45,127 nt of DNA from Acutalibacteraceae bacterium (GTDB taxonomy: Bacteria > Bacillota > Clostridia > Oscillospirales > Acutalibacteraceae). Where the stretch lies: positions 1 to 45,127 of the forward strand of contig JAZNRG010000155.1 of NCBI GenBank assembly GCA_045590575.1. Direction: 5' to 3'. Made by a program: the position numbers and the translations under genes. The notes below the pieces were generated by a model that saw nothing but the letters and a program-made list of their open reading frames with translations, was not told where the DNA came from and searched no databases. This document shows positions 6,556-28,340 of the stretch, piece by piece (position 1 is the first letter of the stretch; the number at the start of each line of letters is the position of its first letter).

Positions 6556-6954
6556 TTATCCTCCCGTCAACAGAACACCGTGAGCTACGGACGGTATACT
6601 TTCGCTCTGCAAGGAGGAAACTCCCGACATAAGGGCGCCCGTACCAACAAAAAGAACCTTTTTCAGTTCTCCGTTCTCAATTTTTGTCAGTATGTCAGAG
6701 CACAACACCGCCGCACTGCATCCGCATCCGGACCCCCCTGATCCCACATCGTTTTGCTTCACGGTATCATAAATCATCAATCCGCAATCGTTGTGTACTG
6801 CGGAAATATCTGTATTCTCCTGCTTTATCATAAGCTCGCACAGAAGCTCCGTACCTACAGCTCCCAAATCACCGGTCAGAATCAAATCATAGTCATCAGG
6901 TTTGGTGTTTGTATCGCTCAGAAAATCGCTTATGGTGCGGCATGCAGCAGGTGT
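6556..6954 (-). pseudogene. spoVAD: 3' fragment (~132 codons, intact frame) of stage V sporulation protein AD; probably half of a split gene
   Basis: Has the SpoVAD motifs PAA..TI, DYDLILTGDL, HNDCGLMIY, GGSGCGCS, TGALMS and SIPSVAHGV. The ~200 N-terminal residues of a ~340-aa SpoVAD are absent, and there is no RBS. Confidence 0.9.
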
Positions 6955-6976
6955 TGATGTCAAGGGTACACCATAA
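6930..6976. mobile_element. Putative serine-recombinase attachment site at the spoVAD breakpoint
   Basis: Perfect 8-bp inverted repeat TTATGGTG (6930-6937) / CACCATAA (6969-6976), centred on 6953, the codon where SpoVAD similarity starts. Confidence 0.6.
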
Positions 6977-7005
6977 AAAAGAAGCTGCCATTTTCAGACA
7001 GCTTC
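6975..7005 (-). terminator. Rho-independent terminator of the kinase-nucleotidyltransferase operon
   Basis: Minus strand GAAGCTGTC-tgaaaat-GGCAGCTTC-TTTTTT. Confidence 0.85.
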
Positions 7006-7010
7006 CGATT

Positions 7011-7748
7011 TCATTTATCTATTCCTTTATACTCTGTTTTAACTTTTTCATAGCTCTCGAGATTGCCGATATCATAACGGCTGCCGGGCATCTCCATTGC
7101 ATGAACTTCAGTCTGAGTGCAGAGCCAGGCAATAAAACTGCCCGGTGCATCCGTACCGCATCCGCTGTCTATCCCCTTCTGCACAAGCCTTGCATCGGAT
7201 TTTGTGTAGTAATAGAACGGCGGACAGCACCAGTTTGTTGCGGGATTCGGTGATTTCTCGGTCATATTGAGAACTTTATCATTTCCATCAATAGTTACAA
7301 CTCCGCATTTGAGGAGTTTGTTGAACTCGGGTTCAAAATATCTCATTATGCAGGAGGTCGCTTTAGCCTTTGCATATGAAACAAACTTTGTAAGGCTGAA
7401 ATCGAGAACGTTATCACCTGCGATTACAAGCATATCATCGTCAAGATTAAGCATATCGATAGCAAACTGAATGTCTTTGACCGCACCCAATCGGGTTTCG
7501 TTGGTATCCGTGCCGTCGTCAACAACGGTTACTTTCTGCGATTTTGTTGCTGCCCATTTTTCAAAATGATGAGCGAATTTATGGTTGGAAATAACAACAT
7601 ATTCGTTAACTTCACCCGATGCGTCGATATCGTCAATGAGCCAGTCGAGAATTGTTTTGTCACCCACTTCAAGAAGAGGCTTTGGGAAATTTTTAGTCAA
7701 AGGATAAAGACGGGTTGCATATCCCGCCGCTAATATAAGACACTTCAT
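7011..7748 (-). CDS. Sugar-1-phosphate nucleotidyltransferase (NTP_transferase family)
   Basis: N-terminal LILAAGYATRLYPLT..PKPLL, GDN and C-terminal DIG motifs. Confidence 0.9.
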   Translation of the reverse strand: MKCLILAAGYATRLYPLTKNFPKPLLEVGDKTILDWLIDDIDASGEVNEYVVISNHKFAHHFEKWAATKSQKVTVVDDGTDTNETRLGAVKDIQFAIDMLNLDDDMLVIAGDNVLDFSLTKFVSYAKAKATSCIMRYFEPEFNKLLKCGVVTIDGNDKVLNMTEKSPNPATNWCCPPFYYYTKSDARLVQKGIDSGCGTDAPGSFIAWLCTQTEVHAMEMPGSRYDIGNLESYEKVKTEYKGIDK

Positions 7749-7750
7749 AG

Positions 7751-8929
7751 TTACACCTCAAGATTCACACCGTCTGCACTTTCGCAGATGTGAACGGAAT
7801 ATTTGCCCTCAAGATGAGGGAATGCTTCGAGATATTCACGGGTTACGGATTCAATAATACGTTCTTCATAATCGGGATTGATAAGTGCCATACAGCATCC
7901 CTTGAAGCCTGCACCCGAGAAACGTCCGCCGTAGATTCCTTCGGTATGAGTCATAATTTCATAGAGCTTTTTTAGTTCGGGAGAACCCGTTTCCCAATTA
8001 TAAATCGAAGATTTGCCGCTTTCAAAAGAAAGTCTGCCGAATTCTTCGATATCGCCGTTTCTGAATGCTTCCGCGCCTCTCTGAACACGGTCGAATTCCG
8101 TATACCAATGCTCGGCACGTTTGCGCCAGTTTTCGGGAAGCTTATCTTTGTATTCAAGATAAACTTCATAGGGAACATCACGGAGATTTGTTTCTTCAAA
8201 CTTACCGTAATCCATACCTGCATAAGCCTTCAAAGCATAAGCGGCACTTCTGCATTCATCAACTCGCATATTGAATGCCGAGCCTGCAAGAGAACGTTCG
8301 AGACCGCTGAAAAAGATTGCTATTTTATAGGGTTTCATTGCAGGATTCTGTGGGATAAGCTCGTATGTATCGTTCTGCAAATCCATATATAAAAGGTGGT
8401 CTTTTTTGCAGTAAACTTCGCAGGATTGGTCAAGCTTTCCGCAGGAAACACCGACATAAGCATTCTCGGCTTCCTGAGAAATGGCAATAAGCTCTGCAGG
8501 TTCAAGTTCAATGCGGTTCATTGTGCAGAGAGCTGACAAAAAAGTTATGATTACCGCCGCGGATGACGAAAGACCGCCGATGGGTAATTCACCGTCAACA
8601 ACAGCGCAAAGTCCTCTGCGCAGAGGATAACGCTTGTTCAAAGCAATCGTTGCTCCTCGGAGGTGGTCTGCCCAGTCATCCTGAGGCGTTTCGGGAGTTG
8701 CCGCAACATGCCATTGAGCACGCTTGTCAAACTGCATCGATTTGATTTCAATAACACCGTTTTCCTTGGGACCGTATGCAATATGTATACCCTTATTGAT
8801 GGCAAAACCCGTGATTTTGCCGAGCTGGTGGTCGCTGTGTGCACCTATCGGGCAGATTCTGTACGGTGTGAATGCGGTATACTGAGCAGTTTTCTTGTAT
8901 GTCTGTTCAAACATTTGGGCAGCAGTCAT
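7751..8929 (-). CDS. GHMP-family sugar kinase, galactokinase/galacturonokinase-like
   Basis: PYRICPIGAHSDHQ substrate motif, PIGGLSSSAA ATP loop and GGRFSGAGFKGC. Confidence 0.9.
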   Translation of the reverse strand: MTAAQMFEQTYKKTAQYTAFTPYRICPIGAHSDHQLGKITGFAINKGIHIAYGPKENGVIEIKSMQFDKRAQWHVAATPETPQDDWADHLRGATIALNKRYPLRRGLCAVVDGELPIGGLSSSAAVIITFLSALCTMNRIELEPAELIAISQEAENAYVGVSCGKLDQSCEVYCKKDHLLYMDLQNDTYELIPQNPAMKPYKIAIFFSGLERSLAGSAFNMRVDECRSAAYALKAYAGMDYGKFEETNLRDVPYEVYLEYKDKLPENWRKRAEHWYTEFDRVQRGAEAFRNGDIEEFGRLSFESGKSSIYNWETGSPELKKLYEIMTHTEGIYGGRFSGAGFKGCCMALINPDYEERIIESVTREYLEAFPHLEGKYSVHICESADGVNLEV

Positions 8930-8964
8930 TTCGAGCTCCTCCGTTGATATCCATAATCTTTTAT

Positions 8965-9042
8965 ATTATATCGTATAATTAATTTTTCGTCAATTAAATT
9001 ATAAAAAACGCTATTGATAGCGTTTGATATGTGTGATATAAT
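8965..9042. promoter_or_regulatory. Back-to-back sigma-A promoters
   Basis: Minus: TTGACG(8993-8988)-17-TATAAT(8970-8965). Plus: TTGATA(9014-9019)-17-TATAAT(9037-9042) with extended -10 TG. Confidence 0.7.
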
Positions 9043-9073
9043 CAAACCGATTTTATATACAGGGAGCCGAAAA

Positions 9074-11020
9074 ATGAAAAGAATAATATCCTTACTTCTG
9101 ATTTTATCAATGCTGTTTATGATTCCGTTTGAGGTTTCCGCTCAGGGCGATTCTTATGACACGGGAATTGTTGATTTGCCTCAGAAATCAAACACCTCAA
9201 CCGAAACCCGTACCCGTAAAAAGGTTGACGGACTCCGTATGTACGTTGACGAAGAAAACCCGCTGTTTATGATAAGAAACTGCCCGATATGGGGCGGTCC
9301 GCAAACGGGTGAATCATTTGCGGAATATGCAATAAAAACATATTATGCACTTCCCGAGGATATAAGAAACTTTGCTGTTATTTATATTGACGAGGGCACA
9401 ACGGATATGACCCCCGCCCGTCAGCTTGAATTCTGGGACGAGCTTTTAACTGTTACAGATGCGGCAAATGTTCCGATTGTTTGTCAGAGTGAATGCTTCT
9501 GCACCAACAAAACCCGAGACCCCTTTACCCAGGAAGAGCTTTCAGCCGTATTCAAAAAGCATCCGTCACTCATCGGGTTTGTTCAGGTTGAGCTTTCAAC
9601 GAACGGTGTTACCAACGAAAAGCTCGCTTACGATGAAGTAACGGAAGATAACGGTGTTAATAAAAATATCCTTGCAAGACTCAAATCCTGCATAAAAGCC
9701 TGTGCCGAAAACGGCGGACTTTTTATCTGGCAGGATATGGAATATATTTACCGCAAAAAGCTCAATTATGTTAACCATATTCTCAGGGACAGAGAGCTCT
9801 ATGACCTGCTCAAGGCAAACACAGAAAACATTATTATAATGGATAAACACAACGGCCACGGCAGGCATTTTGCGAGCCAGTCCAACATTCTCGGTTGCTG
9901 GCTCGATGATGTTTGCGGCAACTGGGGTGTAAATCTCGAAAACTTCCTTTGGTATGAAGAAGGATTCATAGAATATGACGATATCGGAGTAAAACCGAAC
10001 GAACCCGACCCGATTACCACAGCAAAATATCCGCCCGCCCTTTTCGGCATTGATATGATTGCCGACCTTGTAGGCGGTGCAACGGTTTATGCGATTGAGG
10101 GCACATTCAGCAGAGGCGGTCTTTATCATTTCGTTGACGGTGAAGTTATTATGACTCCGACGTTCTGGGATGTTCTTTATCCCATTTATCAGATGATTCT
10201 GAACGGTGCCGTACCAAGCAAAGAACAGGTAAAAGAAAAAATCAAGGTTGCCTATAAAATGACTTCGCCTGCATTCTGGGCACTCAGCGGCAACGATGCC
10301 CATCTTCTGCAGGGACTTTACTGCGATACATTCAGCTTTATCCAGGAAAAATTTGATATTACTCCGTATTTCGACTGCTCAAAAACCTGGGTTCCGTCAA
10401 CGGGAAGATATCATATAATCCCGATTCTTCCTATTTATTCGAATCCCGAGGAAGTGCTGCCCGAGAGTGAAATTCTCAATGATTTCAGTTATTTCTTCAA
10501 TCTTCTTTTCATCAATCCCATCAAAACAAAGTTCTTTGATAAATATTACGAAGAAACCTACAAGGGCGACGGCGTTCTGTTTGACATAAATGACTATGTT
10601 TATATTTTCAACAGCAACGAAAACAAAACAATCGACAGCGAACAGACGGTAACCTACACCCTGCCCGAAAGCAAGAAAGAAATCAACGCATCCTTTGTTG
10701 CTCACACCTATGCGATAATCAATGAATCCGAAGAAAAGATTGAGATTGATTTATGCAATCTCCGTCTTGACACTGATGCCGTCTGCCACGGACTTGAAAA
10801 TGAAGACCAGTTTATGAGAGCCTATGCCGCAGGCGGAAAGATGAATAATCCCAACGATTTCAGAACCTCGGTCATCACTCTTTCGGGCTTTGAAACAGCT
10901 CCGAGCGTCAACGCATGGGGTTCAAACGGTGCAAAAGGCAGAGCCGAATGGAATGCCGAAACACAGACTCTTACTTTAACCGTTATCTGTAACGGCGAAG
11001 TGAGAATAACGGTTGAGTGA
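9074..11020 (+). CDS. Secreted glycoside hydrolase family 98-like protein
   Basis: Signal peptide MKRIISLLLILSMLF after a GGGAG RBS. GCWL..CGNWG...WYEEG, GGATVYAIE, TGRYHIIP and YIFNSNEN segments resemble GH98 catalytic and C-terminal domains. Confidence 0.65.
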   Translation: MKRIISLLLILSMLFMIPFEVSAQGDSYDTGIVDLPQKSNTSTETRTRKKVDGLRMYVDEENPLFMIRNCPIWGGPQTGESFAEYAIKTYYALPEDIRNFAVIYIDEGTTDMTPARQLEFWDELLTVTDAANVPIVCQSECFCTNKTRDPFTQEELSAVFKKHPSLIGFVQVELSTNGVTNEKLAYDEVTEDNGVNKNILARLKSCIKACAENGGLFIWQDMEYIYRKKLNYVNHILRDRELYDLLKANTENIIIMDKHNGHGRHFASQSNILGCWLDDVCGNWGVNLENFLWYEEGFIEYDDIGVKPNEPDPITTAKYPPALFGIDMIADLVGGATVYAIEGTFSRGGLYHFVDGEVIMTPTFWDVLYPIYQMILNGAVPSKEQVKEKIKVAYKMTSPAFWALSGNDAHLLQGLYCDTFSFIQEKFDITPYFDCSKTWVPSTGRYHIIPILPIYSNPEEVLPESEILNDFSYFFNLLFINPIKTKFFDKYYEETYKGDGVLFDINDYVYIFNSNENKTIDSEQTVTYTLPESKKEINASFVAHTYAIINESEEKIEIDLCNLRLDTDAVCHGLENEDQFMRAYAAGGKMNNPNDFRTSVITLSGFETAPSVNAWGSNGAKGRAEWNAETQTLTLTVICNGEVRITVE

Positions 11021-11041
11021 TTTTATCACAAAAAAACACCA

Positions 11042-11069
11042 AAACGGCGCAACACAGATTGCACCGTTT
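11042..11069. terminator. Hairpin between convergent genes
   Basis: AAACGGCGCAA-cacaga-TTGCACCGTTT. Confidence 0.5.
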
Positions 11070-11161
11070 CCGTAAAAAACAATATTCAGTTTTAATTTGC
11101 CGTAAAGCATAGAGCTGCTCTTTATCCGCACTCTCCGCTTTACGGCTTTTCTTTCGCCCTG

Positions 11162-11389
11162 TTATCCGAGCTCATCTTCAACAACATCGTCCAAATGGCA
11201 AATCTCGAGTTCAACTTCATTGCACATATCAACAAAATCAACAGCTCTCTGCCTTTCGAAGAACAAATCCGGATATGATGCCTGCGTATTTCCGAGCGAA
11301 TCTTTGGCGGAAATGCCGAAAACATCGTGGATTATCCCCTCTTCGTCTTCGAGTCCGCTTTCTTCAAGGAAATAATATATTTCATTCAT
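11162..11389 (-). CDS. Small acidic protein (DUF6514-like), 75 aa
   Basis: MNEIYYFL...FGIS...DLFFERQRAVDFVDMCNEVELEICHLDDVVED. The start overlaps the XRE stop (ATGAATGA). Confidence 0.65.
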   Translation of the reverse strand: MNEIYYFLEESGLEDEEGIIHDVFGISAKDSLGNTQASYPDLFFERQRAVDFVDMCNEVELEICHLDDVVEDELG

Positions 11390-11615
11390 CACTCTTATCT
11401 TTTTTCGGGTTGCCGATGATATCGTCAACAGAGCTTTTGAATTGCTCCGCAATGTTAACAACTGTTTGCAGGCTCGGCAAAACAACTCCGTTTTCTATAT
11501 TGCATACGGTTCTTGCGGAGGTATCGATTGTTTCCGCAAACCCCTCCTGAGACTTATGCGCAGACTTCCTTATTTCCTTGATTTTGTTTCCGATTAATTT
11601 TGCATCTAACTCCAT
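11382..11615 (-). CDS. XRE-family helix-turn-helix regulator
   Basis: IGNKIKEIRK...SQEGFAE...VCNIENG..LPSLQTV. GAGGTG RBS before the ATG at 11615. Confidence 0.9.
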   Translation of the reverse strand: MELDAKLIGNKIKEIRKSAHKSQEGFAETIDTSARTVCNIENGVVLPSLQTVVNIAEQFKSSVDDIIGNPKKDKSDE

Positions 11616-11733
11616 TAAAATCACCTCGCAGTATCTTATCATCAGACAATAATTTTTACCACGAAACACATTTCCGTTTTTTACAAATTTTGGTGTTTTT
11701 TACGGTTTACAAGCAGTAAATTGCCTGTATCCG

Positions 11734-11761
11734 TATATGAACCTTATCTGTGTTTGTTACA
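11734..11761 (-). promoter_or_regulatory. Putative ECF-sigma promoter for the XRE gene
   Basis: TGTAAC-16 nt-CATATA on the minus strand; same architecture as 12555-12582. Confidence 0.55.
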
Positions 11762-11906
11762 TCGAAAAAACATTCAAAGAGCAATCTTCTGTGTTTTGCA
11801 CAAAAATGCGGGGCGATTTCTGTGAATAATTGCCACAAATCAGAGGGTAACCTCGTTTCTCTGACGGCCAATTATCTGAAAAACAATTTATTCCGTTCAA
11901 CATTTT

Positions 11907-11935
11907 TTGACAAAATATTTCCTGGTTGCTATAAT
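11907..11935 (+). promoter_or_regulatory. Consensus sigma-A promoter for the ECF sigma gene
   Basis: TTGACA-17 nt-TATAAT with extended -10 TG. Confidence 0.8.
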
Positions 11936-11977
11936 CATCAGAGAATATAAACAACTTTGCAAAAGGTGTGATATAAG

Positions 11978-12526
11978 TTGATAACTGCTGAAAGATCGGC
12001 GGAAATTGCACGCATATACTATAACGACCTGAACAACTATATTTCAAAACGAATCAAAAACAAATATGATGCCGAGGATATTGCCCAGGATGTTTTCCTT
12101 TTGTTTCAGGAACGCTACACAGACCTTGACGATGATAATATCAGAGCGTGGCTCTATAAAGTTGCCGATAACAAAATCAAAGAGAAATACAGAGAAATTG
12201 CAAAGCAGGAGAAAATACGCCTTCTCTCGCTATTCCCGGGTTATGAAAAAAGCGCTGATGTTGTTTATGAAATGGAAGAAGATTATAAAATAACCGATGA
12301 TGAGCTTGAAGAAAAGAAGAAAACCGTTATGGAATCCCTCACCGAAAAGGAACTGAAGCTTTTCGAAATGGTTTATAACAAGCATCTGGAATATAAAGAG
12401 CTTGCAAAAGCTCTTGAAATAACCGAAAGCAACGCAAGGGTAAGAGTTTGCAGACTCAGAGCCAAAATCAGCGAAAAAACATCCTATCTGTTCATGGCAA
12501 TTCTGCTTCTTCTTATGCGAATTTAA
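11978..12526 (+). CDS. ECF-type sigma-70 factor
   Basis: Region 2 DAEDIAQDVF...RAWLYKVADN and region 4 LTEKE...EYKELAKALEITESNARVRVCRLR. Confidence 0.9.
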   Translation: MITAERSAEIARIYYNDLNNYISKRIKNKYDAEDIAQDVFLLFQERYTDLDDDNIRAWLYKVADNKIKEKYREIAKQEKIRLLSLFPGYEKSADVVYEMEEDYKITDDELEEKKKTVMESLTEKELKLFEMVYNKHLEYKELAKALEITESNARVRVCRLRAKISEKTSYLFMAILLLLMRI

Positions 12527-12554
12527 AAAAATTAAAATTTTTTCAAAAATTTTT

Positions 12555-12582
12555 TGTAACAAAACCGTATTTCCTTCATATA
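12555..12582 (+). promoter_or_regulatory. Putative ECF-sigma promoter for the anti-sigma gene
   Basis: TGTAAC-aaaaccgtatttcctt-CATATA. Confidence 0.55.
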
Positions 12583-12639
12583 TAGGTGAAGGAGGTAAAA
12601 AGTTTAACGAATCATAAATGCACGGAGGTGAAATATTCC

Positions 12640-13440: not shown

Positions 13441-13441
13441 T

Positions 13442-13828
13442 ATGAAAAAAATTATTGCTCTTGTTCTTGTTATAGTTTCCCTCTTTTCCGCAATGTCAAT
13501 TTCCGTTTATGCGGAAAACACAAATAAAAATACCGTTACGGTTACCGTAAACGAAACCGTTTTTATTTTTAATGCAAACACCACAGAAGAATTTAGAAGT
13601 AAAGCAATTGCTCATTATTTCAACCACGAAAATGACGGTGTCGCCTACGGTCTTACCTGTACCCTTTTCGGTCATAAGCTTGAGTCCTCGGTCATGACAA
13701 CCATAACACACAAAGCAAGTTCAACCGATCCCAGATGCCTTCGCGAAACATTTAACGTAGAAGTATGCACCAGATGTGATTATACAAATCCCATTCTGAT
13801 TGGTTCAACATACATTTCCTGCTGCTAA
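13442..13828 (+). CDS. Small secreted Cys/His-rich protein
   Basis: Signal peptide ending VYA-E; CTLFGH...C...CTRC...CC. Confidence 0.8.
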   Translation: MKKIIALVLVIVSLFSAMSISVYAENTNKNTVTVTVNETVFIFNANTTEEFRSKAIAHYFNHENDGVAYGLTCTLFGHKLESSVMTTITHKASSTDPRCLRETFNVEVCTRCDYTNPILIGSTYISCC

Positions 13829-20200: not shown

Positions 20201-22376
20201 AACCTTCATTCCCGCAACAGCAATTTATTACGAGGACACCTTCGACACCATAACCTATACGGACGGTAAAGTTGCCACAAACTATGACAACACCGCAAAT
20301 GAGTACGGTTTGTGGAAAACAGACGGCAAGCAGGCAACAACCCTCAAGCAGACTGCCGACCTTACGGACAGTGAGGCAAACCCCTACAGTTACGAAACAA
20401 ACTATATGTCATTCGCCGAATACAGCGGCGGCTCGATTCACTACGTTGACGTAAGTACAAAAAACAATCCCAGCTCCAAATTCAGCGGCGGAACGGGCGG
20501 TAAATGGCCCACAGTTGAATTCGATTTCACAGGTACGGGATTTGACCTTATCAGCATCACCGACTGCACAACGGGTGCGTTCAGCGTTATGGTCAAGAAC
20601 GATAAGGGCGCAGTTGTCAGAAATCATGTTATTGATACTTTCTACGGCTATAACTACGGCAGAATCTATGCCGATGCAAACGGACAGCCTTCGCTTGACA
20701 GCACTCTCACACCTATGTACAAGTCAGAAAACGGTGCGTGTACGGTTGATGAAAGATACTATGACGAAAACGGCAAAATCACCGATGCCGCTCATTATTA
20801 CGATACCGACGGCAGTGTTACCAAAGAAGTCCGTTATTATGATGAAAACGGTGCTGTTACCGATGTTGCTCATTATTATGATGCGGACGGCAACATAACC
20901 GAAACAGAAACAGAGGCTCCAACCTACGCTTGTTCTTATGCCTTTGCTTACGGCTGGGTTCTTGCCTCCGAAGGTTCGAAAGAAACTCTTTATCAGATTC
21001 CCGTCATAAAGATAGAAAATCTTGAATACGGCAGCTACAGTGTTGTAATAACGCCCACATTCACAAGTGCATTCCGTCATTCGTCCGTTGCAGAAGATGG
21101 CACTAATTACTACAGAGTATATCTTGATGCAATCAAAATCTATTCACCCGCAGGTGTTGAAGATGATATCAAAGATGCTGACGTAAAGAAAGCATATTCA
21201 ACCGATGATGAGCTTTACCCGAGCTATCTCGAACTCAAAAATATGCTTATCGGTGCAGATTCACTCTCTGAAACCGACACTCAGGGCATTATCTTCATCG
21301 ACGGTATCGCCGCTCTCGATAACGATATTGAAACCTATAAGAGCGCAGGTCCCAACAACGAACTTTATCTTGCAAAAGACCAGGCTGTTGCATTCGAAAT
21401 CTGGGCAACCTCTGTTCCCACAGATGTTCAGCTCGGAACCAAGCTTGCCTGCGGTGAGCCTGACCTCACGGTTTCATACGCATCAAAAACAACCGATATC
21501 GATATCAAAACGGCAACCGATATTTATTATTCGCTCAACACCGTTCTGCCGAACGATGCGAAGCTCACATGGAGGCAGGTAAAAGGCAGCGACGGTAAAA
21601 ACTATTACACAACGGGAACGGTTGTTATTCAGAACACGGGCACTGCTGACAGCGTTCTTTCAATAACCAATCTTAAATGGACATTCTCTCAGAACGGCGG
21701 CAAGGGATATTTCAGAATTCCTACTCCCGTTGAAGACGAAAACGTTACCGTATCATCAACTACGGGCACTCAGCAGGTTGCATATTCGCTTATGCGAATG
21801 AGAACTGCAGCTCTTGATGTTGAACAGATCGGCGAACCTGAGGTTGTTACCGACGAAAACGGCAGCAGCACAATCACGGTCAAACTCAGAACCGAGTCGG
21901 AAGTAACTTCTCTTGAAGTCTGCGACGAAAAAGGCAGACCTGTAAATCCGAAGAATGTTGAGTATTCTTCATCTCCCGTCGAGGGCGAAGATGCAATTGA
22001 ATGGACCGTAACAATCACAACCAACGAGTACGGCACTCACACCTACACGGTTGCAGGTGCTTATATGAACGGCTACACAGACTATTCAAAGTCAATAACC
22101 GTTAGCGTAACTATCGAAGCACCTCCTGCCGATGAGCCTTCGGATGATCCAACTGATAAACCCACCGATGATCCCACTGATGATCCGACAGACGATCCTA
22201 CTGATGATCCTACCGATGATCCGACAGACGAACCCACAGATAACCCCGCAGATGATCCTGCTGACGAACCGACAGACGATAAGAGCTGTCCGTTCTTCGA
22301 ATTCATCATCTGGGTTTATAACCAACTCATGAAACTTACCAAAGCAGTTTTGTCACTGCTCGGAATAAAAATCTGA
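14286..22376 (+). CDS. Giant (2696 aa) secreted GH2 beta-galactosidase-like multidomain protein
   Basis: Signal peptide; GH2 motifs LPHDFSI, RWYSGSGINR, LKGVSLHHDQG, WGVGNE and GEFVWTGFDYIGE. These are followed by duplicated beta-rich domains, a FIVAR-like segment, a fibro-slime/PA14-like GDDDVYVYIDG..LERG, PT repeats and an amphipathic tail. Confidence 0.9.
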   Translation: MKIAKKVLAVVLCTVMIASTMMNEGWSSVLQSIRASAVAGQEQSYNDARVELDFNKGWKFAFSEDSASYLKGFDDSGWEDVDLPHDFSISQGFSATGTEAESGNIPGGTGWYRKWFNLYEYYTGDCITIDFDGAYQHAYVYVNGQYVGENHYGYNSFSIEISDYLICSNTALNLIAVKVVNDIPSSRWYSGSGINRDVKLTIKGPVHVSLYGPQVTTPNIASGDGTAKAEVTMHNDTSISKKVTVETTILDDNHNVVGETVTSSLVTVPAESEYTVTLEPKVASPKLWSIDTPNLYKLKTVIKNEAGEIIDEYHTTFGYRYIKWDKDNGFSLNGELIKLKGVSLHHDQGALGAIQEYDAIYRQLSILKDMGCNAVRTTHNTTSRVLIDICNKLGILVMEEFFDGWDAEKNFNTNDFSVYFNETLKENNQLIGAKGQKWFEFVVEQTILRDRHDPCIIAWGVGNELYNITNDGVLSETANYENIVKSIVKIRDELDPDIFLVQGNNKSHAEPTVLVDGYMDITGANYSPADWAWLIGETDDFRASKPFVATEAASANNSRGVYYTMSKDDATHQCTAYDTYAVEWGEEAAEAWYYVATNDFFSGEFVWTGFDYIGETTPWMEWVGPNPNLVPNSSYFGIVDTAGFAKDSYYLYRSWWNEKDTTLHLVPGSWNDENLLLNNGYVNVAVYSNAKKIELLLNGNVIATATSTVTTTPAGYTYRTWTESITDSSKCSIGNFYTEAGANFYSQFSVKYEEGTLSVKAYDENGAEIADTVGSSKSVSGEATQIAVNTWQDRNTYVADGGEYIYLEFEARDADGNFMNDYNGTLSFKVDDQSARYAKIVGVDNGNPATTEKFQQPSVLKSDSEAEFKMFNGKALVILKTTEEEGTINFTAIASDNGTSFSTEGVTVTSVSETGIRLTDEFEEVVIQNGDEYEVTLFDEYEMVKHHINELEPPVNTGGDSISSDKFVIYQPSASATQYIPNGNYAISANKVLMSSEVFDGWAVSKSTDISDIDWASGSTYPYDSFDTIDSNVFTFTHVGNNKYYIQNNITKDYLTRNTYMVVLGSEPHAFTVDLNDDGSLMIYSEDPYPNYYIAQGYDPFEFKPQESDSAKIWLYSAPKKASDDTTEEEPAVPEKYVLKLVDSTLPNGEYVLNISNTVMSDEVYATWAVAADTAVTGVEWASADDPYKYLSLNTSADNIYEFTNRGGNKYYIQNKHTGEYLCVKDYCLWLGEDPFEFTVNVNNNGSIEISYTAANGTTYPIFREWEYYGFEQPYEDYNTTIWLYEPQYPESGDGDDTGDSGNVSGDYLERKALYDILHEGIEYDYSEYTRASYEALLEKLEAGVAVYKKADATKEELAAATAAIKAAIQGLKLDVKKIDGTLFKYGYNNSTGTADYSSGGILMNDIAVKQMKTAILANENILNQIKEIIGYNDASFGWTGTKADEVLEKAVELYAEIYTMQFTGVPYTGSPDRNGVSNSSYLYKDTTITPLTAWNIWTKANTHGATDPVGIHDGVSLQGLASSTLDDGVITSHSAYTSALSYANDGPEEGDSTMYDIEYYTYGFDTGSQYKEVTLEYLSGISVYFPDLFTKESLDVNGNATEATSGQFSKYYWDTEFPMFISTDEYGVNTYHYDSKDTQYLIQASFNDAEHKVNMELNDVGKWWVNGPNNGNGSGFFPFNYKQGTTNYNGEDAVYHYGFTFEHSFYIPKGGKHVNGEDVIFNFSGDDDVYVYIDGVLVLDNGGLHGARAANINFTECSINYQYAMDVADGQLKGGEYETTYSYNAYIEDPDATGYNADTIAAINKLHEVISDGEVHTLNFFYLERGASDSNCLISFNLSETSEEVKIIDQNLTLDYGLPVEYDITENNVISQAALDNGVEIEYLGICAVNIDYTPTYTFELPKIIIPFEDDVTYTIDGMKYGTCTIDNKGNVSYSLESTNMKESENFYVVAKITGDPTYAEEVVYYQVEKTTFIPATAIYYEDTFDTITYTDGKVATNYDNTANEYGLWKTDGKQATTLKQTADLTDSEANPYSYETNYMSFAEYSGGSIHYVDVSTKNNPSSKFSGGTGGKWPTVEFDFTGTGFDLISITDCTTGAFSVMVKNDKGAVVRNHVIDTFYGYNYGRIYADANGQPSLDSTLTPMYKSENGACTVDERYYDENGKITDAAHYYDTDGSVTKEVRYYDENGAVTDVAHYYDADGNITETETEAPTYACSYAFAYGWVLASEGSKETLYQIPVIKIENLEYGSYSVVITPTFTSAFRHSSVAEDGTNYYRVYLDAIKIYSPAGVEDDIKDADVKKAYSTDDELYPSYLELKNMLIGADSLSETDTQGIIFIDGIAALDNDIETYKSAGPNNELYLAKDQAVAFEIWATSVPTDVQLGTKLACGEPDLTVSYASKTTDIDIKTATDIYYSLNTVLPNDAKLTWRQVKGSDGKNYYTTGTVVIQNTGTADSVLSITNLKWTFSQNGGKGYFRIPTPVEDENVTVSSTTGTQQVAYSLMRMRTAALDVEQIGEPEVVTDENGSSTITVKLRTESEVTSLEVCDEKGRPVNPKNVEYSSSPVEGEDAIEWTVTITTNEYGTHTYTVAGAYMNGYTDYSKSITVSVTIEAPPADEPSDDPTDKPTDDPTDDPTDDPTDDPTDDPTDEPTDNPADDPADEPTDDKSCPFFEFIIWVYNQLMKLTKAVLSLLGIKI
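22130..22280 (+). repeat. 12-bp-period coding tandem repeat (DDPT/PT linker)
   Basis: Encodes DEPSDDPTDKPTDDPTDDPT...; copies differ at synonymous positions. Confidence 0.9.
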
Positions 22377-22403
22377 TGCTGTAAAAGGAGGTAGCGTAAA
22401 AAT

Positions 22404-22643
22404 TTGAAAAAGCCCTATATAAAACCCGCAATCGCTTTTGAAAGCCTCGCTATTACAGCAAACGTATCTTCGGGATGCGCCCTTCTTGCTACAAACAGTG
22501 CAGAATATTCCTGCCCCGTTATCGATGAGGAATCGGGATGGACCATTTTTTCCGATTACACCCTCTGTATGATAACCCCCACTCCCGATGACACAATCTG
22601 CTACGATATTCCGCTTGCCAACAGCAGCGTTTTCACATCGTAA
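22404..22643 (+). CDS. Putative RiPP precursor peptide (79 aa)
   Basis: AAGGAGG RBS with TTG start. Leader KKPYIKP (YxxP), Cys at 25/37/55/66, C-terminal VFTS. Lies upstream of radical SAM and PqqD genes. Confidence 0.75.
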   Translation: MKKPYIKPAIAFESLAITANVSSGCALLATNSAEYSCPVIDEESGWTIFSDYTLCMITPTPDDTICYDIPLANSSVFTS

Positions 22644-22657
22644 CCAAACTCTGAAAA

Positions 22658-22691
22658 GAAACGGAGTTCTTCATACCCAGAACTCCGTTTC
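22658..22691 (+). other. 13-bp perfect stem-loop directly after the precursor gene
   Basis: GAAACGGAGTTCT-tcataccc-AGAACTCCGTTTC; no long U-tract. Confidence 0.75.
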
Positions 22692-22707
22692 ATAAAAAGG
22701 TGTTTTT

Positions 22708-23376
22708 ATGAAAAAAAGATATATCGCAATCGGAGCCGTAATCCTGATTGCAGTTGCGTTGCTTGCTGTTGCAGTTATAAAACATCATTCGGATAAAAAC
22801 CAAGCCCTGACCGTCACAACCGTCGGCAATTTTGAAAAAGCTCAGCTCGGTGTTACCGTTGACGGCTGGCTGAAAATTATCGGAATCAATGAGTATAACG
22901 GAAGGCTTGCGGTTATCGCAGAAAACGTATCAGATACCGATGTTGAATACGCACTGCTTTCAGTTAAAACAAAAAGCGACACACTTACATTCAATATTTC
23001 CGCTCTGCTGAGCGGAACAAAAGCCGCACTTCTGTGTAACGAAGAGGTCGCAAGCGACCCCTCGGAAGTTTACACCGCATGGCAGATAAATGATATAATT
23101 ATCTTTGAAGAACCGCCCTCTATGAATGACGACAAATTTGAGCTTCAGATTCTGGACGGTTCGTTATCCGTCAGAAACATCTCAGGCAAGGATATAGAAT
23201 CCGATATATATGTTTATTATAAGGACAAAGACGACGATGTGGTCAACGGCAGTATAACATATAAATTCCGTGTTGAAGGCCTCAAAGCAGGCTCACAAAC
23301 TTTTGTGAAAGCACCGGAACTCAATGAAGATAACTGCCGGATTATATTCACTGATTATGATAACAACCAATTATAA
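22708..23376 (+). CDS. Hypothetical N-terminally anchored/secreted beta-rich protein
   Basis: MKKRYIAIGAVILIAVALLAVAV anchor followed by two strand-rich acidic modules. Confidence 0.75.
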   Translation: MKKRYIAIGAVILIAVALLAVAVIKHHSDKNQALTVTTVGNFEKAQLGVTVDGWLKIIGINEYNGRLAVIAENVSDTDVEYALLSVKTKSDTLTFNISALLSGTKAALLCNEEVASDPSEVYTAWQINDIIIFEEPPSMNDDKFELQILDGSLSVRNISGKDIESDIYVYYKDKDDDVVNGSITYKFRVEGLKAGSQTFVKAPELNEDNCRIIFTDYDNNQL

Positions 23377-24217
23377 AATCGGCAACTTCACCGCAGAAGT
23401 GAAGTCACGGATTCCTTTTCATAACACCAAGCCCTATTCACTTTTTGCCTGCAACACCGGGCAGAGCGATTTCAGCGTAAGCCTTGAATTCTCGTCTGTT
23501 CTTCCGTCCGGAATCGAAAGCCCGTATTATGAGGCACATGACAGAGTTTGCATTTATGAAAACGGAATTCTGAAATGCTGCTATATATCCCGCGATAATG
23601 AAGATGATTATTATGCCTGCCGCACGGTTGACGGCAAAAACATAAGCATCATCATCGATGAAAAATACAGCAATCTTCTACGCCCCGAAGTGGTGTTTTC
23701 GCTGATCGGCATCGAAGAGCTCGTTGCCGAAAGCGGCGGATGCATTCTTCATTCCTCGTTTATCGAAAAAGACGGCTGTGCAATTCTTTTTACGGGTCCT
23801 TGCGATATCGGCAAATCAACGCAGGCAAATCTGTGGAGAAAACACGCCGATGCCGTTGTGGTCAACGGCGACAAAACATTTATTTTTGAAAAAGACGGTA
23901 TCTTTTATGCCTCGGGAATGCCTTTTTCGGGGTCTTCAAAAGATTGCCTCAACAGAGTATTGCCATTGAAAGCCATAGTCAGGCTGCAGCAGGATAAATC
24001 AAATCACCTCTGCAGTCTCGACACAACCAAGGCTTTCTACAAACTTTATAAAAACTGTTACCCCGTGCCCTATTCACGGGAACTTACGGGCAGACTGATT
24101 GATTTTATTCAGCAGATAAGTCAAAATGTGCCCGTGTATGATTATGCCTGCCTTGCAGATGAAAGTGCGGTCAGGTATCTGGAGAGAGAATTATGCCCGC
24201 TGTTACAGAGCCTTTGA
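23357..24217 (+). CDS. HPr-kinase-like P-loop protein (lasso-kinase/SynChlorMet ScmC-like)
   Basis: ILHSS...AILFTGPCDIGKST...NGDK...PFSGSS. Start uncertain (23324 or 23357). Confidence 0.75.
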   Translation: MITTNYKIGNFTAEVKSRIPFHNTKPYSLFACNTGQSDFSVSLEFSSVLPSGIESPYYEAHDRVCIYENGILKCCYISRDNEDDYYACRTVDGKNISIIIDEKYSNLLRPEVVFSLIGIEELVAESGGCILHSSFIEKDGCAILFTGPCDIGKSTQANLWRKHADAVVVNGDKTFIFEKDGIFYASGMPFSGSSKDCLNRVLPLKAIVRLQQDKSNHLCSLDTTKAFYKLYKNCYPVPYSRELTGRLIDFIQQISQNVPVYDYACLADESAVRYLERELCPLLQSL

Positions 24218-25299
24218 TGGTCAAATATCTTCACGACAAAGGCATTCGTGAAGGCATACCCGTTTCCGGCACATTTGAGCTTACTCAGAGATGTAACTTC
24301 AACTGCGAAATGTGTTATGTTCACGACTGCATCAAGAAAACGGATTCTCTATCCGCAGAGAATTGGATTGAGCTTGCCCGTCAGGCAAAAGATGCGGGCA
24401 CTGTTTTCCTGCTCCTCACGGGCGGCGAGCCTTTGCTCCGCGAAGATTTTGAAGAAATTTACCGAGTTCTTTCAAAAATGGGCTTTCTTATTTCAATCAA
24501 CACAAACGGCAGTCTTATTGAAAAATATACAGAGCTTTTCAATGAGCTCCCCCCCACCCGCATAAATATTTCTCTCTACGGTGCGGATAATTCCGTATAT
24601 AAAAGACTTTGCCGTAATGATTCATTCGATAAGGTGATAAGCTCAATCAAAAAAATGAAAGACCTCGGCATAGCCCTGCGTCTTAACACTATTTTCACCC
24701 CCGAAAACATATCCGAATATAAAAAAATTGCGGATATTTCAAAAGAGCTTTCAATTCCCCTCAAACCAACCACATATACCTATCCGTCCGTCAGACTCGG
24801 CAGCGAAAACAAGGATTCGCGTTTTTCTCCCGAGGAAGCGGCAGAATACATTGCACTTATCGACGAATACCGTTTTGATAAGGATTTCTATCTTGAAAGG
24901 ACTAAGAACATAACTCTGCTCCCTAAAGGACCAACGGAAAACAAGGTTCGCTGCAGAGCAGGCAGAGCTTCTTTCTGGATAACCGCAGACGGCACTATGC
25001 TCCCTTGCGGTATGATGCCCGAACCCGCTGCAAAGCCTCTTGAAATCGGCTTTGAAAAAGCGTGGCAGGATATCAGGGCGGCAACGGATATGATAAGGCT
25101 TCCGGAAGAATGTCTTTCCTGCAGGTATTCGGGCATATGCAATGTGTGTGCGGCTATGTGCAAGGCGGAAACGGGTGATTTTGGCAAAGTGCCTCACTAT
25201 GTCTGCCGGATGACAAAGCATCTGTTTACCCTCGCAGAAAGGAGCACAAGCGAAAATGACAATCAAAAAAGAAATGATCCTGCGCAAAGTGGGGAATGA
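24193..25299 (+). CDS. Radical SAM/SPASM domain protein
   Basis: CNFNCEMC, TGGEPL and INTNG; SPASM CRAG..DG..PC..CLSC..IC.VC...C...C. Confidence 0.95.
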   Translation: MPAVTEPLMVKYLHDKGIREGIPVSGTFELTQRCNFNCEMCYVHDCIKKTDSLSAENWIELARQAKDAGTVFLLLTGGEPLLREDFEEIYRVLSKMGFLISINTNGSLIEKYTELFNELPPTRINISLYGADNSVYKRLCRNDSFDKVISSIKKMKDLGIALRLNTIFTPENISEYKKIADISKELSIPLKPTTYTYPSVRLGSENKDSRFSPEEAAEYIALIDEYRFDKDFYLERTKNITLLPKGPTENKVRCRAGRASFWITADGTMLPCGMMPEPAAKPLEIGFEKAWQDIRAATDMIRLPEECLSCRYSGICNVCAAMCKAETGDFGKVPHYVCRMTKHLFTLAERSTSENDNQKRNDPAQSGE

Positions 25300-25522
25300 T
25301 GTTATTCTCGTTCCCGTCGGCAATGCGCTGAAGGATCATAACGGCCTGTTTATGCTCACAGAGTCTGCCTGCTTTTTGTGGGAACATCTTACCGAATGCA
25401 ATTCGGTGCAGGAACTCGCAAAAAAACTCTTTGATGAATACGACGTTACAAAAGAACAGGCTCTCGCCGACACAAAGGAATTCCTCGGCATTCTTCTTAA
25501 ACTTGATATAATAGAAATATAA
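25256..25522 (+). CDS. PqqD-family RiPP recognition element (RRE)
   Basis: 88 aa, LRKVGNDVILVP...LTESACFLWEHL...EYDVTKEQALAD...FL..L. Confidence 0.9.
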   Translation: MTIKKEMILRKVGNDVILVPVGNALKDHNGLFMLTESACFLWEHLTECNSVQELAKKLFDEYDVTKEQALADTKEFLGILLKLDIIEI

Positions 25523-25535
25523 TTGGTATAGATAA

Positions 25536-25570
25536 AAAGCGTGCAGCTCAAACGAGTTGCACGCTTTCTT
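25536..25570. terminator. Bidirectional terminator between PqqD and recombinase
   Basis: AAAGCGTGCAGCTC-aaac-GAGTTGCACGCTTT flanked by A and T tracts. Confidence 0.85.
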
Positions 25571-27243
25571 TATGCCGTTTTGACGGTATCTTTATTGAGT
25601 TCAATATATTCGGTTATCTGTTCAAACGCATCTTTGCACTTAAGTCTGATTGTGATTCTTCCGCCTTCGTGAACAAGAATTTCTTCGATAAGCTCCGTAA
25701 CAACAGGCCTCGTGAGCTTGTTTATGTTGCCGAGCTTTGTGAATTCGCTGATGAATGAATTATTCTCCATTCCGTTTTCCTGCTCTTCAATTTTTTCTTT
25801 AACAGACTTTATTTTCTCATCAATCCCCTGAATTTTCATCTGAAACTCATTCTTCAGATTCATATATTCCTCTTTCGTGATATTCCCTCTTTTCCAATCG
25901 GGATACAGTTCAAGAATCATATTATTATGGAAATCTCTGTCTTTGAGATGCTTATCCAGGGCTTTTCTCAGAAGATCCGATTTATTTTTCTTTTTTTCGC
26001 TTGAATTTATGGCTTTTATGATTTCATCGTATTCGGTTGCAACCTCAACCATTTTCTGCAGAAAAACAAGCACTGCATTCTCGATTTTATCGATTCTGAT
26101 TGTGTGATTGGTACAGGCACCCTTGCTCATTTTTCTCGCTGTTGTGCATCGGTAATAATGATATTCTCCGTAGGAATGCTTGTTTGATTTCTTGCTCATT
26201 CCTCTGCGACAATCCGCACACTTCACAATTCCCGCAAACAGCTCAACATCCTTCTTCTGTGGAGAAGTTCTTGTGTTTCGGTTAAACAAAGCCTGCGCTT
26301 TATCGAATGTTTCTCTGTCAATTATGGCTTCGTGCGTACCTTCAACAACATACCATTCTTCTTTAGGCATAGCAACACACTGCTTGATTTTATAGCTGAG
26401 TTTCTGGTTTTTACCCTGAATCATATTACCAAGATACATCTCATTTTTAAGAATACGGCGAACAGAGCTTTCGGGCCACAAGCCGTCATTTATCTTCCCC
26501 GCAGGATGCTTATAATCAAAGCCTTTAAGTTTCTTATACATTGACGGATTCGGCACTGCCATTTCGTTAAGCTCACGGGTTATACCGAGAATGCTCATCC
26601 CCGAAACATACTTTCCGAATATCATTCTGACAATCTCTGCCGCCTCCTTATCAACAATCAGCTTGTGGCGGTCTTCGGGATCTTTCTGATACCCGTAGGT
26701 TGCAAACGAGCCGATAAACTGCCCGTTTATGCGCCTCATATTAAGCGTACCTCTGACGTTTACGGATGTTGCCGCAGAAACGCTTTCGTTGATAACATTG
26801 GTAACACCGATGGTTATGCACTGCGTAACGGCATTCATATTGTCCGAAGCCGTATCAACTGAATTGTTGACCGCAATAAGTCTGACGGAGTGACGCACAA
26901 AAAAATTCTCAATATAATAACCACCGTCGGCATAGTTTCTGCCGAATCTCGAGAGATCTTTAACAATAACGCACTTAACCCTGCCCGCCTCAATATCGCA
27001 TTTCATCCGTTCAAATCCCGGTCTGTCAAAATCCGTTCCCGTGCAGCCGTCATCTATATAAAAATCATAGAATTCAAGCTCGGGATGAAGTTTCAGGTAT
27101 TCTTTAAGTATTTCTTTCTGCGACAAAACAGAATCGCTCTCATCCTTGTCGCGGTCTTCTTTTGAAAGACGGATATAAAGAGCAGTCTTGCAAGGGGCGA
27201 AATTCCCATGAAGCTGCTCTGATACCATAGTATTTTTATGCAT
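25570..27243 (-). CDS. Large serine recombinase (resolvase + recombinase + Zn-ribbon + coiled coil)
   Basis: YIRLSKED catalytic Ser, DDG..GT..DRPG, VKDLSRFGRN, YGY, THEAII and CADC..YYRC..C. GGAGG RBS. Confidence 0.95.
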   Translation of the reverse strand: MHKNTMVSEQLHGNFAPCKTALYIRLSKEDRDKDESDSVLSQKEILKEYLKLHPELEFYDFYIDDGCTGTDFDRPGFERMKCDIEAGRVKCVIVKDLSRFGRNYADGGYYIENFFVRHSVRLIAVNNSVDTASDNMNAVTQCITIGVTNVINESVSAATSVNVRGTLNMRRINGQFIGSFATYGYQKDPEDRHKLIVDKEAAEIVRMIFGKYVSGMSILGITRELNEMAVPNPSMYKKLKGFDYKHPAGKINDGLWPESSVRRILKNEMYLGNMIQGKNQKLSYKIKQCVAMPKEEWYVVEGTHEAIIDRETFDKAQALFNRNTRTSPQKKDVELFAGIVKCADCRRGMSKKSNKHSYGEYHYYRCTTARKMSKGACTNHTIRIDKIENAVLVFLQKMVEVATEYDEIIKAINSSEKKKNKSDLLRKALDKHLKDRDFHNNMILELYPDWKRGNITKEEYMNLKNEFQMKIQGIDEKIKSVKEKIEEQENGMENNSFISEFTKLGNINKLTRPVVTELIEEILVHEGGRITIRLKCKDAFEQITEYIELNKDTVKTA

Positions 27244-27291
27244 AGTCAAGCTGCCTCCGTTTTTCCGGCGGCACAGTTATCATACGGCTAT

Positions 27292-27320
27292 ATTATACTG
27301 CACCGCTTTTTGAATTTCAA
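27292..27320 (-). promoter_or_regulatory. Sigma-A-like promoter for the recombinase, overlapping the upstream gene's stop
   Basis: TTGAAA(27320-27315)-17-TATAAT(27297-27292). Confidence 0.55.
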
Positions 27321-27604
27321 CTTGTAATATATCCCGCCGAAATAACATCCGCCAGCATTTCCGAAAAATCCTTTCCGCCTCCGAATTCAACTTTAACAAC
27401 GGTACTGTCAACCCTGAAAAGATAAGGATTACCGACCTGTGCAATAAAATCGTCTGCGCGCTGTTTCTTCGCGGTATTTCGGTTAACCTCTGTTCTTTTC
27501 AGATCAACAAGTTCATCGGCGTTGCAGGTCAGAATATCGGCATTTCTGAGCATTTTAAGATCATTCACCGTCAAATCACTCCTTGTGAAGTGATTTTTGG
27601 CCAA
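27317..27604 (-). CDS. Small recombinase-associated protein (DUF6870-like)
   Basis: ELVDL...FIAQVGNPYLFRV..TVVKVEF; directly upstream of the serine recombinase. Confidence 0.75.
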   Translation of the reverse strand: MAKNHFTRSDLTVNDLKMLRNADILTCNADELVDLKRTEVNRNTAKKQRADDFIAQVGNPYLFRVDSTVVKVEFGGGKDFSEMLADVISAGYITS

Positions 27605-28320: not shown

Positions 28321-28340
28321 CGGCTTTATTAAGTTGTTTA

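Follow-up and report, generated by a model that had tools for sequence, protein, structure and literature searches.

The window, by which we mean the whole 45,127-nucleotide stretch analysed here, contains the 3' end of spoVAD next to the right end of an element that encodes a large serine recombinase.

spoVAD is split by an inserted element

The features of the split gene are as follows.

6556..6951, minus strand: spoVAD 3' half, 131 codons from the crossover proline plus the stop, reading frame open
Contig C34, 7940-8562: spoVAD 5' half, 207 codons
6930..6975, minus strand: attR-like junction, with host arm 6930-6949, core 6950-6953 and element arm to 6975
6975..7005, minus strand: intrinsic terminator-like hairpin with a T-run, right end of the element

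The initial annotation had reported only the last ~132 codons of spoVAD, undamaged, and this is what we found: positions 6951-6556 form an open frame that aligns with positions 203-328 of the Pfam SpoVAD family. It had also called for a 5' half with a matching half-site past position 45127; the contig stops at that position, and the predicted half lies instead on contig C34. Joining it to the 3' half of the window at the split point, the Pro codon of the spoVAD MAPAA motif, gives an open in-frame gene of 338 aa, in line with the ~340-aa frame anticipated. The same operation yielded an open frame of 333-347 aa in all 36 genomes from which both halves were extracted, with no stop or frameshift in either half. 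An intact spoVAD elsewhere had been named as the case against a split gene; none was found in a search of the genome (assembly 83% complete), which returned two matches, both of them the halves. Misassembly and a private decayed fragment were both rejected because the junction recurs across dozens of genomes and is spanned by contigs from other sequencing runs. The low dN/dS values of the split halves (0.137 and 0.124, vs 0.144 and 0.161 for intact alleles) are weak evidence, since the insertions may be recent.

The junctions have the layout of serine recombinase attachment sites

Sites of large serine recombinases have a short core flanked by inverted arms, with an outer motif that lies 5 bp nearer the core in attB than in attP. 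Here a 4-bp core (6950-6953) is common to the 3' and 5' junctions, and the outer motif occupies +13..19 in the two host arms, against +18..24 in the two element arms, as the 5-bp spacing rule requires. This difference in motif position explains why the 8-bp inverted repeat (arms 6930-6937 and 6969-6976), which had been described as centred on 6953, is present and yet off-centre; crossover probably takes place at the CC of the Pro codon, 6950-6951. The same junction is present in all 42 of the 3'-junction sequences examined. The strong terminator noted beside the fragment was borne out as a hairpin at 6981-7005 that folds at about -16 kcal/mol, and a hairpin of -8 kcal/mol or lower precedes the junction in 25 of the 42 sequences.

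Where both junctions lie on one contig they are direct (12/12, inserts of 5.5-101 kb), which is the geometry of excision and rules out that of inversion. Neither the excised chromosome nor the circle was seen in six runs, all of them assembled contigs. In one run, X2, a contig stops at precisely position 6953, where an attB/attR branch is expected; this end is uninformative because the left junction is unbroken in that run and branching at this base is also expected of a variant right arm.

One cognate recombinase and a candidate DUF6870 partner

25570..27243, minus strand: large serine recombinase, 557 aa, intact, with Resolvase, Recombinase and Zn-ribbon domains
27317..27568, minus strand: DUF6870 protein, 83 aa, candidate recombination directionality factor

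The recombinase matches Pfam PF00239, PF07508 and PF13408, has the catalytic serine motif YIRLS, and has the DUF6870 gene directly upstream, as the initial annotation had recognised. The start of the DUF6870 gene, previously set at 27604, is most likely the GTG at 27568, which gives 83 aa and agrees with the public gene call. The earlier, tentative assignment of this recombinase to this site is now backed by co-occurrence: each of 12 complete inserts holds one homologue, and the enzyme is found in 27/31 junction-bearing congeners, in none of 45 with intact spoVAD alone and in none of 25 without spoVAD (0/70 others).

DUF6870, which tblastn detected in 11 of the 12 complete inserts, is a candidate directionality factor on the grounds of its size, position and promoter. 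Known directionality factors do not share a common fold (PMC12286644). Its structure model (pLDDT 83; the single-sequence model was poor) gave no clear fold match, and a sequence search found no related solved structure. Complex prediction with the C-terminal half of the recombinase scored 0.69, and a control reached 0.74.

The element is widespread and moves between hosts

Of 101 sampled congeners, 31 carry the junction. It is also found in 15 further genera and 4 further families, and the element appears to be common in gut Clostridia. In 21 genomes gyrB distances correlate with those of spoVAD (rho 0.77; 0/2000 permutations as high) and are uncorrelated with those of the recombinase (rho -0.02). 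Because the recombinase tree departs from the host tree we consider the element mobile, and from these sequence comparisons its horizontal spread between hosts is taken as established; a vertically inherited, domesticated element was rejected on the same conflict. The spoVAD tree mixes intact with split alleles, some of them as sister pairs that have good support.

A rival reading is a selfish element that uses a conserved site in spoVAD. Its excision would be rare or linked to its own spread, its hosts would form poor heat-resistant spores or none, and an RNA switch would serve only integration into a new host. The element crosses species, spoVAD is absent from 25 of the 101 congeners (several of them at least 96% complete), spoVT and two SASP genes look truncated in the genome studied here, and integrative and mobilizable elements (IMEs) with site-specific serine recombinases are known to disrupt dispensable genes (PMC5704250). 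We nevertheless think it unlikely, given that both spoVAD halves are free of stops and frameshifts in every genome where they were extracted, that forespore-type signals precede both spoVAD and DUF6870, and that sigG, spoVAC/AE and dpaA are all present.

Cargo and extent of the element

7011..25522, no strand assigned: cargo right of the recombinase, with nucleotidyltransferase, galactokinase, GH98, HTH and sigma-70-type genes, a 2701-aa GH2 protein and a radical SAM/PqqD cluster
27622..45127 (contig end), no strand assigned: cargo left of the recombinase, with glycosyltransferases, MBOAT, an ABC transporter, radical SAM and a large surface protein

The element runs beyond the contig, to judge by synteny with four relatives probably via C97 to C34. 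The galactokinase, nucleotidyltransferase and GH98 genes recur in 7-8 of 11 elements compared. No phage structural gene was found among 31 proteins of the window and 32 of relatives scanned with Pfam, or among 10 scanned with PHROGs, a scan that covered a minority of the 518 listed ORFs. No relaxase, an expected part of a Tn4451-like IME, was recognised in the proteins scanned, which include the majority of ORFs in the 5.5- and 8.4-kb elements, and the small elements showed no recognisable replication gene.

Some elements have taken in host-type genes that are possibly essential, in genomes G073 and G034. The G073 element contains the sole gatB found in that genome, together with a second aspS that is fused to gatC. 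No asnS was found in this genome, which at 92% completeness may reflect an assembly gap; given the state of gatB and asnS, loss of the element may be lethal. The idea that the sole aspS of G073 is inside the element proved wrong, as another lies elsewhere, and the argument for essentiality rests on asnS and gatB.

These genes bear on a variant in which the element does excise in the forespore and outgrowth often brings loss of the circle, or the circle is kept extrachromosomally, the element being regained horizontally. The interspersed alleles and the conflict between recombinase and host trees would suit such losses. A promoter and trigger predicted to exist only in the circle (see below) favour re-integration, however, and possibly essential cargo and small elements that have no recognised replication gene also tell against it, so that we hold this variant to be rather improbable.

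Forespore-type promoter candidates precede spoVAD and DUF6870

27592..27621, minus strand: candidate promoter of forespore type (sigma-F/G-like) for DUF6870 and the recombinase, 99th percentile of the genome background

In C. difficile, spoVAC-AD-AE is under sigma-G control (PMC3789822). With a matrix trained on intact alleles, 29 of 32 stand-alone split spoVAD alleles have a preceding site that scores higher than the 95th percentile of background. Before DUF6870 a relaxed forespore pattern, loosened after the sites had been seen, occurs in 29/32 (background 2.1%), the strict pattern in just 4/32, and a matrix score above the 95th percentile in 6/32. As a control the pattern was sought before sigG, sigF and one SASP gene and found before none of them, so it is not very sensitive. 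Sigma-E and sigma-K patterns were found before DUF6870 in 0/32.

This last result, and the fact that SpoVA is made in the forespore, count against a skin-like excision in the mother cell or before septation, for which the precedent is that the sporulation cases in the work cited are mother-cell events (PMC4191935, PMC5025042). The two halves might also act as separate proteins, with no recombination, by way of an in-frame TTG in the right arm ahead of the 3' half; that TTG belongs to the invariant arm containing the -35 box and recombinase site, and a terminator stands directly before the 3' half, as it does in 25 of 42 sequences. We regard both possibilities as highly improbable.

A predicted circle promoter and a predicted transcript complementary to the recombinase leader

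6958..6963, minus strand: TTGACA of the element arm, predicted to act as the -35 box of a sigma-A promoter only once the ends are joined
C34, 8569-8577, left arm: extended -10 of the predicted circle promoter
27244..27286, minus strand: recombinase mRNA leader, with exposed 5' end 27286-27277, anti-SD stem and Shine-Dalgarno (SD) sequence 27251-27258
27292..27320, minus strand: sigma-A-type recombinase promoter, TTGAAA-17-TATAAT, with complementarity between its spacer and the anti-SD stem

The joined ends of the element are predicted to form an active sigma-A promoter: TTGACA is present in 42/42 right arms and TGn-TAnnnT in 44/44 left arms, with a 17-bp spacer, and the extended -10 varies at its free positions alone. 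A sigma-A-type promoter is also found in 31 of 32 DUF6870-recombinase spacers. The leader that follows it is complementary to C34 8609-8627, just within the left junction, and its Shine-Dalgarno sequence is predicted to be sequestered in a hairpin. All results on this RNA switch are predictions, and the related genomes compared are not independent of one another.

The duplex between the circle transcript (the trigger) and its cognate leader has z scores of -2.3 to -8.9 in 26 of 27 cases, the sole miss being a window that was too short; a fresh test in another family gave -8.5, and G550 gave -1.3, which is not significant. Pairing co-varies across unrelated sequence types: the sequence is wholly different between element types while the pairing is retained, each of the divergent types G087, G303, G307 and G211 pairs best with its own partner, and trigger positions 1-14 are paired in 18-21 of 21, with G-C to A-U changes. 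Complementarity starts at the predicted +1 and tolerates G-U pairs. The spacer helix alternates A-U/G-U and C-G/U-G, which is an RNA signature. The predicted median cost of opening the SD is 8.9 kcal/mol for the short mRNA, 2.4 for the long mRNA (5.8 with shuffled upstream sequence) and 2.3 with the trigger (6.1 shuffled). Trigger binding in the genome studied here is weak in the model, about -3 kcal/mol, and the spacer of G021 is no better than shuffles at opening the SD. In G040, where the DUF6870-recombinase operon lies ~135 bp behind the left junction, the leader and the sigma-A promoter are absent and no trigger motif was seen. Rfam gave no match in L001 or L033, and we found no description in the literature of an RNA switch at such an element.

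The complementary stretch might instead be a DNA operator or a repressing antisense RNA, the rest of the cycle being as proposed below. Inverted copies of one motif would also suit a protein-binding site, and the duplex could attract RNase III. Pairing that begins at the predicted +1, tolerates G-U and survives a change of sequence between types speaks for an activating RNA, as does the absence of the module in G040, where the operon is directly behind the junction; the operator or antisense role therefore seems to us very unlikely.

A proposed excision and re-integration cycle

Starting from the split gene, its in-frame join, the attachment-site arms, the single cognate recombinase and the horizontal spread, all observed, we propose that a mobile element splits spoVAD, likely excises in the forespore and likely re-integrates by means of the predicted RNA switch, a reading to which we assign a probability of about 0.6. 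In the growing cell, with the element integrated, the mRNA from the sigma-A promoter would encode the recombinase alone and keep its ribosome site shut in the hairpin, and the element would therefore stay put. In the forespore, the sigma-F/G-type promoter would give a longer DUF6870-recombinase mRNA in which base pairing between the anti-SD strand and the sigma-A promoter spacer releases the ribosome site. Read-through over the left junction from the spoVAD promoter may contribute to this state. Recombinase and DUF6870 would then excise the element, and the rebuilt spoVAD would be transcribed from its own forespore promoter.

Since the spore does not divide, the circle would persist until outgrowth. 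Joining of its ends would create the sigma-A promoter, and the short transcript would pair with the leader from its first base and open the hairpin, so that recombinase made without DUF6870 could re-insert the circle, an event that would destroy the circle promoter. The initial annotation had raised the need for re-integration, and the sequence now offers a candidate mechanism for it. We give even odds to the broader proposal of a programmed excision in the germ line, in which the element would leave spoVAD in the forespore, lie dormant as a circle and re-enter by a toehold-type RNA switch, with essential genes kept inside it in some species and other forespore genes perhaps treated likewise.

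Comparison with known systems

As in sporulation intervening elements, the split gene rejoins in frame (36/36) and its own recombinase is inside (12/12); at the sequence level neither the target nor its control is of the mother-cell kind found in those elements. In skinCd of Clostridioides difficile, which also splits a sporulation gene, sigK, the recombinase is CD1231 and the directionality factor CD1234 (PMC5025042). There sigma-A drives the recombinase, which suffices for integration, and excision also requires a small compartment-specific partner, as proposed here. The skinCd target is a mother-cell gene, control is by sigma-E and SpoIIID, and the event is one-way, whereas in the spoVAD element both target and partner promoter are of forespore type, and RNA is predicted to gate recombinase translation. 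Further elements are gin in gerE (Bacillus cereus), SPbeta in spsM, skin in sigK, vfbin and vrin (PMC5595907, PMC4191935). Like the spoVAD element they carry serine recombinases and their spore genes rejoin precisely in frame; unlike it, all are in mother-cell genes. gin has no phage genes (none was recognised here among the proteins scanned), and has three recombinases where the spoVAD element has one.

Tn4451 has a TnpX circle promoter. State-dependent integrase promoters are described for ICEKp1 and ICEclc (PMC13023037). The leader of the ICEKp1 integrase has inhibitory stem-loops, as predicted here. In all three elements, as in our prediction, a promoter favouring integration arises, or is delivered, when the ends are joined. 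Their promoters read straight into the adjacent integrase gene, whereas distances of up to 74 kb, which a trans-acting RNA would bridge, separate the spoVAD recombinase from the junction. A promoter at the circle junction and a transcript complementary to the recombinase leader are the predicted features that are new here.

Reversible active lysogeny is described for Listeria phi10403S in comK and SpyCIM1 at mutL, in a review that classes the sporulation cases as irreversible (PMC13492144). The proposed cycle resembles it in that a host gene is switched on by excision and the element re-integrates later; active lysogeny involves phages or phage remnants in growing cells, and the spoVAD element would act in sporulation.

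Significance

The element provides a recombinase with both attachment sites defined and a candidate function for DUF6870, and explains why spoVAD is called broken in many metagenome bins. The predicted RNA control could be tested in E. coli or B. subtilis, with no need to culture the host, and its three predicted states would explain how the element could escape loss. The sporulation rearrangements in the work cited are one-way events in the disposable mother cell (PMC5025042, PMC4191935). If the proposed cycle is true, a reversible rearrangement in the cell that carries the genome onward would be a new class.

Organization of the split spoVAD gene

The window is the entire contig C155 of a source genome that is 83% complete in 193 contigs. 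The positions of the spoVAD fragment, inverted repeat, terminator, recombinase and DUF6870 gene agree with those in the initial annotation. A genome-wide Pfam search gave two spoVAD matches, the window fragment and a match to positions 1-207 on another contig, C34; joined, the halves encode 338 amino acids. The two junctions share a 4-bp core whose last two bases are the CC of the MAPAA motif's Pro codon.

6556-6951, minus strand: 3' half of spoVAD
C34:7940-8562: 5' half of spoVAD
25570-27243, minus strand: recombinase
27317-27568, minus strand: DUF6870, candidate directionality factor
27244-27286: leader, the 5' part of the recombinase mRNA
C34:8609-8627: trigger, a predicted RNA from just inside the left junction

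The tail of C34 and the window give an insert of at least 44.5 kb, and the insert probably exceeds 61 kb, since contig C97 shows synteny to the central part of the element in four relatives. Downstream of spoVAD lies a 46-aa ORF (6415-6552, minus strand) that matches nothing in NCBIfam; a similar start follows split spoVAD alleles in 12 of 27 cases and intact ones in 4 of 27.

Distribution of the junction

spoVAD was present in 76 of 101 congeneric genomes: 45 carry nothing but intact alleles, and 31 carry a half that bears the junction. G004, which belongs to the 31, has an intact spoVAD as well; its junction stretch looks like that of G098, and mis-binning of this stretch is possible. The family sample gave matches in 228 of 251 genomes, and the 23 with partial scores were examined further; 18 of these, from 15 other genera, carry the junction. 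Ten partial-score genomes from a class sample of 400 were likewise examined: four share these arms, and in a fifth the 3' half lies close to a recombinase of 61% identity; the five represent four other families. Both halves lie on one contig in 12 genomes, always on the same strand and 5.5 to 101 kb apart. In 36 genomes the two halves could both be extracted, and joining gave an open frame every time.

A second element type (L148, L149, L151-L153) occupies the same spoVAD codon, with a 51-52% identical recombinase close behind the junction, a different left arm and a perfect extended -10. In another family, spoVAD (L273/L267, G356:C1:31792-33015) is an open frame of 427 aa enlarged at position 175 by about 80 in-frame codons, which may encode an intein or an additional domain.

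Recombinase and attachment arms

All 12 complete inserts carry a single recombinase homologue each, in the orientation of spoVAD. At E < 1e-100 the recombinase was detected in 27 of the 101 congeners, and each of the 27 is one of the 31 junction carriers. Of the four carriers lacking it, G007 (96% complete) has variant arms; the other three have completeness of 64-83% and a single half each. The closest recombinases are from relatives labelled Acutalibacteraceae or Clostridia. Large serine recombinase sites follow a 5-bp offset rule for their arms, and by this rule the arm layout is that expected of the class. Split alleles retain the host-arm motif at synonymous positions in 27/27 cases, against 10/27 for intact alleles, kin not being independent. 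About ten elements (L049:14449-15420 and nine other relatives) have, upstream of DUF6870, a 324-aa ORF with weak tyrosine-recombinase similarity, for which tblastn found no match in the source genome.

Putative forespore-type control

In C. difficile, spoVAC-AD-AE is sigma-G-controlled, with promoters mapped in the supplement of PMC3789822. We trained a promoter matrix on 18 stand-alone intact spoVAD alleles. Stand-alone split alleles scored above the 95th percentile of 1715 background regions in 29 of 32 cases, the source genome at 99.9, and the same pattern occurs at its spoVT and one spoVAC/AE gene. A site at fixed distance upstream of DUF6870 matches a relaxed forespore pattern in 29/32 and the strict pattern in 4/32, while sigma-E and sigma-K patterns were found there in 0/32. 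Because the relaxed pattern was defined after the sites had been seen, the evidence for this putative promoter is moderate. Excision in the forespore is likely (probability about 0.75).

The frame of spoVT (C91:13564-13761, L252) departs from its family after about residue 35 and then stops, and its C-terminal domain was not found in the 83% complete source genome; it may be another interrupted forespore gene. Two SASP genes, C62:4137-4235 (L251) and C127:1-111 (L250), break mid-gene into unrelated sequence, and a third (C145) reaches its normal end.

Predicted circle promoter and RNA switch

A circle promoter is known for TnpX. Joining the element ends here places TTGACA (42/42 right arms) 17 bp upstream of an extended -10 (44/44 left arms), a predicted promoter. 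The mirror position in the left arm is TTAACA in 84%, so the arm asymmetry is kept. The recombinase mRNA begins with bases complementary to a stretch just inside the left junction; a separate sigma-A promoter is predicted for this mRNA (31/32), and a hairpin is predicted to cover its ribosome site. Predicted trigger-leader pairing is better than shuffles in 26 of 27 genomes; partners are interchangeable within the main clade, and divergent types pair best with their own. Of two fresh cases, G571, from another family, gave z -8.5, and G550 was not significant (z -1.3).

Complementarity to the anti-SD strand, showing A-U/G-U alternation, also exists in the spacer of the sigma-A promoter, so an extended RNA started at the DUF6870 promoter would expose the ribosome site in cis. 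Predicted opening energy lies below the shuffled mean for the long transcript in 28/29 genomes and for the trigger in 25/25, two genomes with long leaders being left out. In G040 the operon adjoins the junction, and leader and sigma-A promoter are absent. The whole circuit of circle promoter, trigger, leader hairpin and spacer helix is a prediction. After the trigger there is a conserved Shine-Dalgarno-like GGAGG (L001:2175-2190, on C34) that no conserved ORF follows; it often lies within a hairpin with covarying arms.

Mobility, cargo and the possible need for re-integration

Split and intact alleles are interspersed in the spoVAD tree (28 intact alleles, of 31 loci tried). Against gyrB distances in 21 genomes, spoVAD gave rho 0.77 and the recombinase rho -0.02, and 1 of 14 supported recombinase splits was also found for spoVAD. 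By these comparisons the element is mobile, not domesticated. dN/dS of the spoVAD halves is about as low as for intact alleles, a test weakened if insertion was recent.

Cargo is chiefly polysaccharide, surface and sugar genes, with gene order shuffled between elements, and several blocks outside the element in the source genome are inside it in relatives. Inside the left junction strain contigs agree over roughly 107 bp, and inside the right one over roughly 25 bp, before they diverge. No transfer genes were recognised among 63 proteins scanned against Pfam. Two radical SAM clusters (22404-25522 and 38824-40793) adjoin surface proteins of very large size and are also seen in the elements of relatives; one of the two includes PqqD and a 79-aa peptide rich in Cys. 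A 9-bp motif (core TGTCATAAC) has six copies in the window (27686, 27898, 28139, 33496, 34323, 18872), three just upstream of DUF6870, where it recurs in many relatives, and 54 genome-wide.

In G073 (92% complete) the only detected gatB and an aspS-gatC fusion lie within the element, and asnS had no match. In G034 (82% complete), too, asnS had no match, and the aspS seen in G073 lies just inside the left junction. In three congeners the operon is outside the element, and asnS is present in all three; all five genomes have glnS. This gene content bears on the need for re-integration and, because the two genomes are 92% and 82% complete, is only suggestive.

Relation to known systems

Comparison drew on PMC4191935 (which also covers vfbin), PMC5595907, PMC13492144, PMC5704250, PMC5025042, PMC12286644, PMC3158075 and PMC13023037. 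The element resembles skinCd in its enzymes but, judged from sequence, lacks the mother-cell target and control; it is like reversible active lysogeny in logic, but no phage structural gene was recognised among the 63 proteins scanned against Pfam or 10 against PHROGs. Full-text searches, with most subscription papers outside their scope, listed no description of an interrupted spoVAD, forespore excision or DUF6870 and 0 matches for spoVAD, recombinase and attB together; neither SpoVAD nor DUF6870 was found in eight supplements of PMC10083194.

We regard the split gene, the element and the element's recombinase as secure. We somewhat favor the full cycle, in which excision in the forespore would yield a circle whose return would be triggered by RNA.
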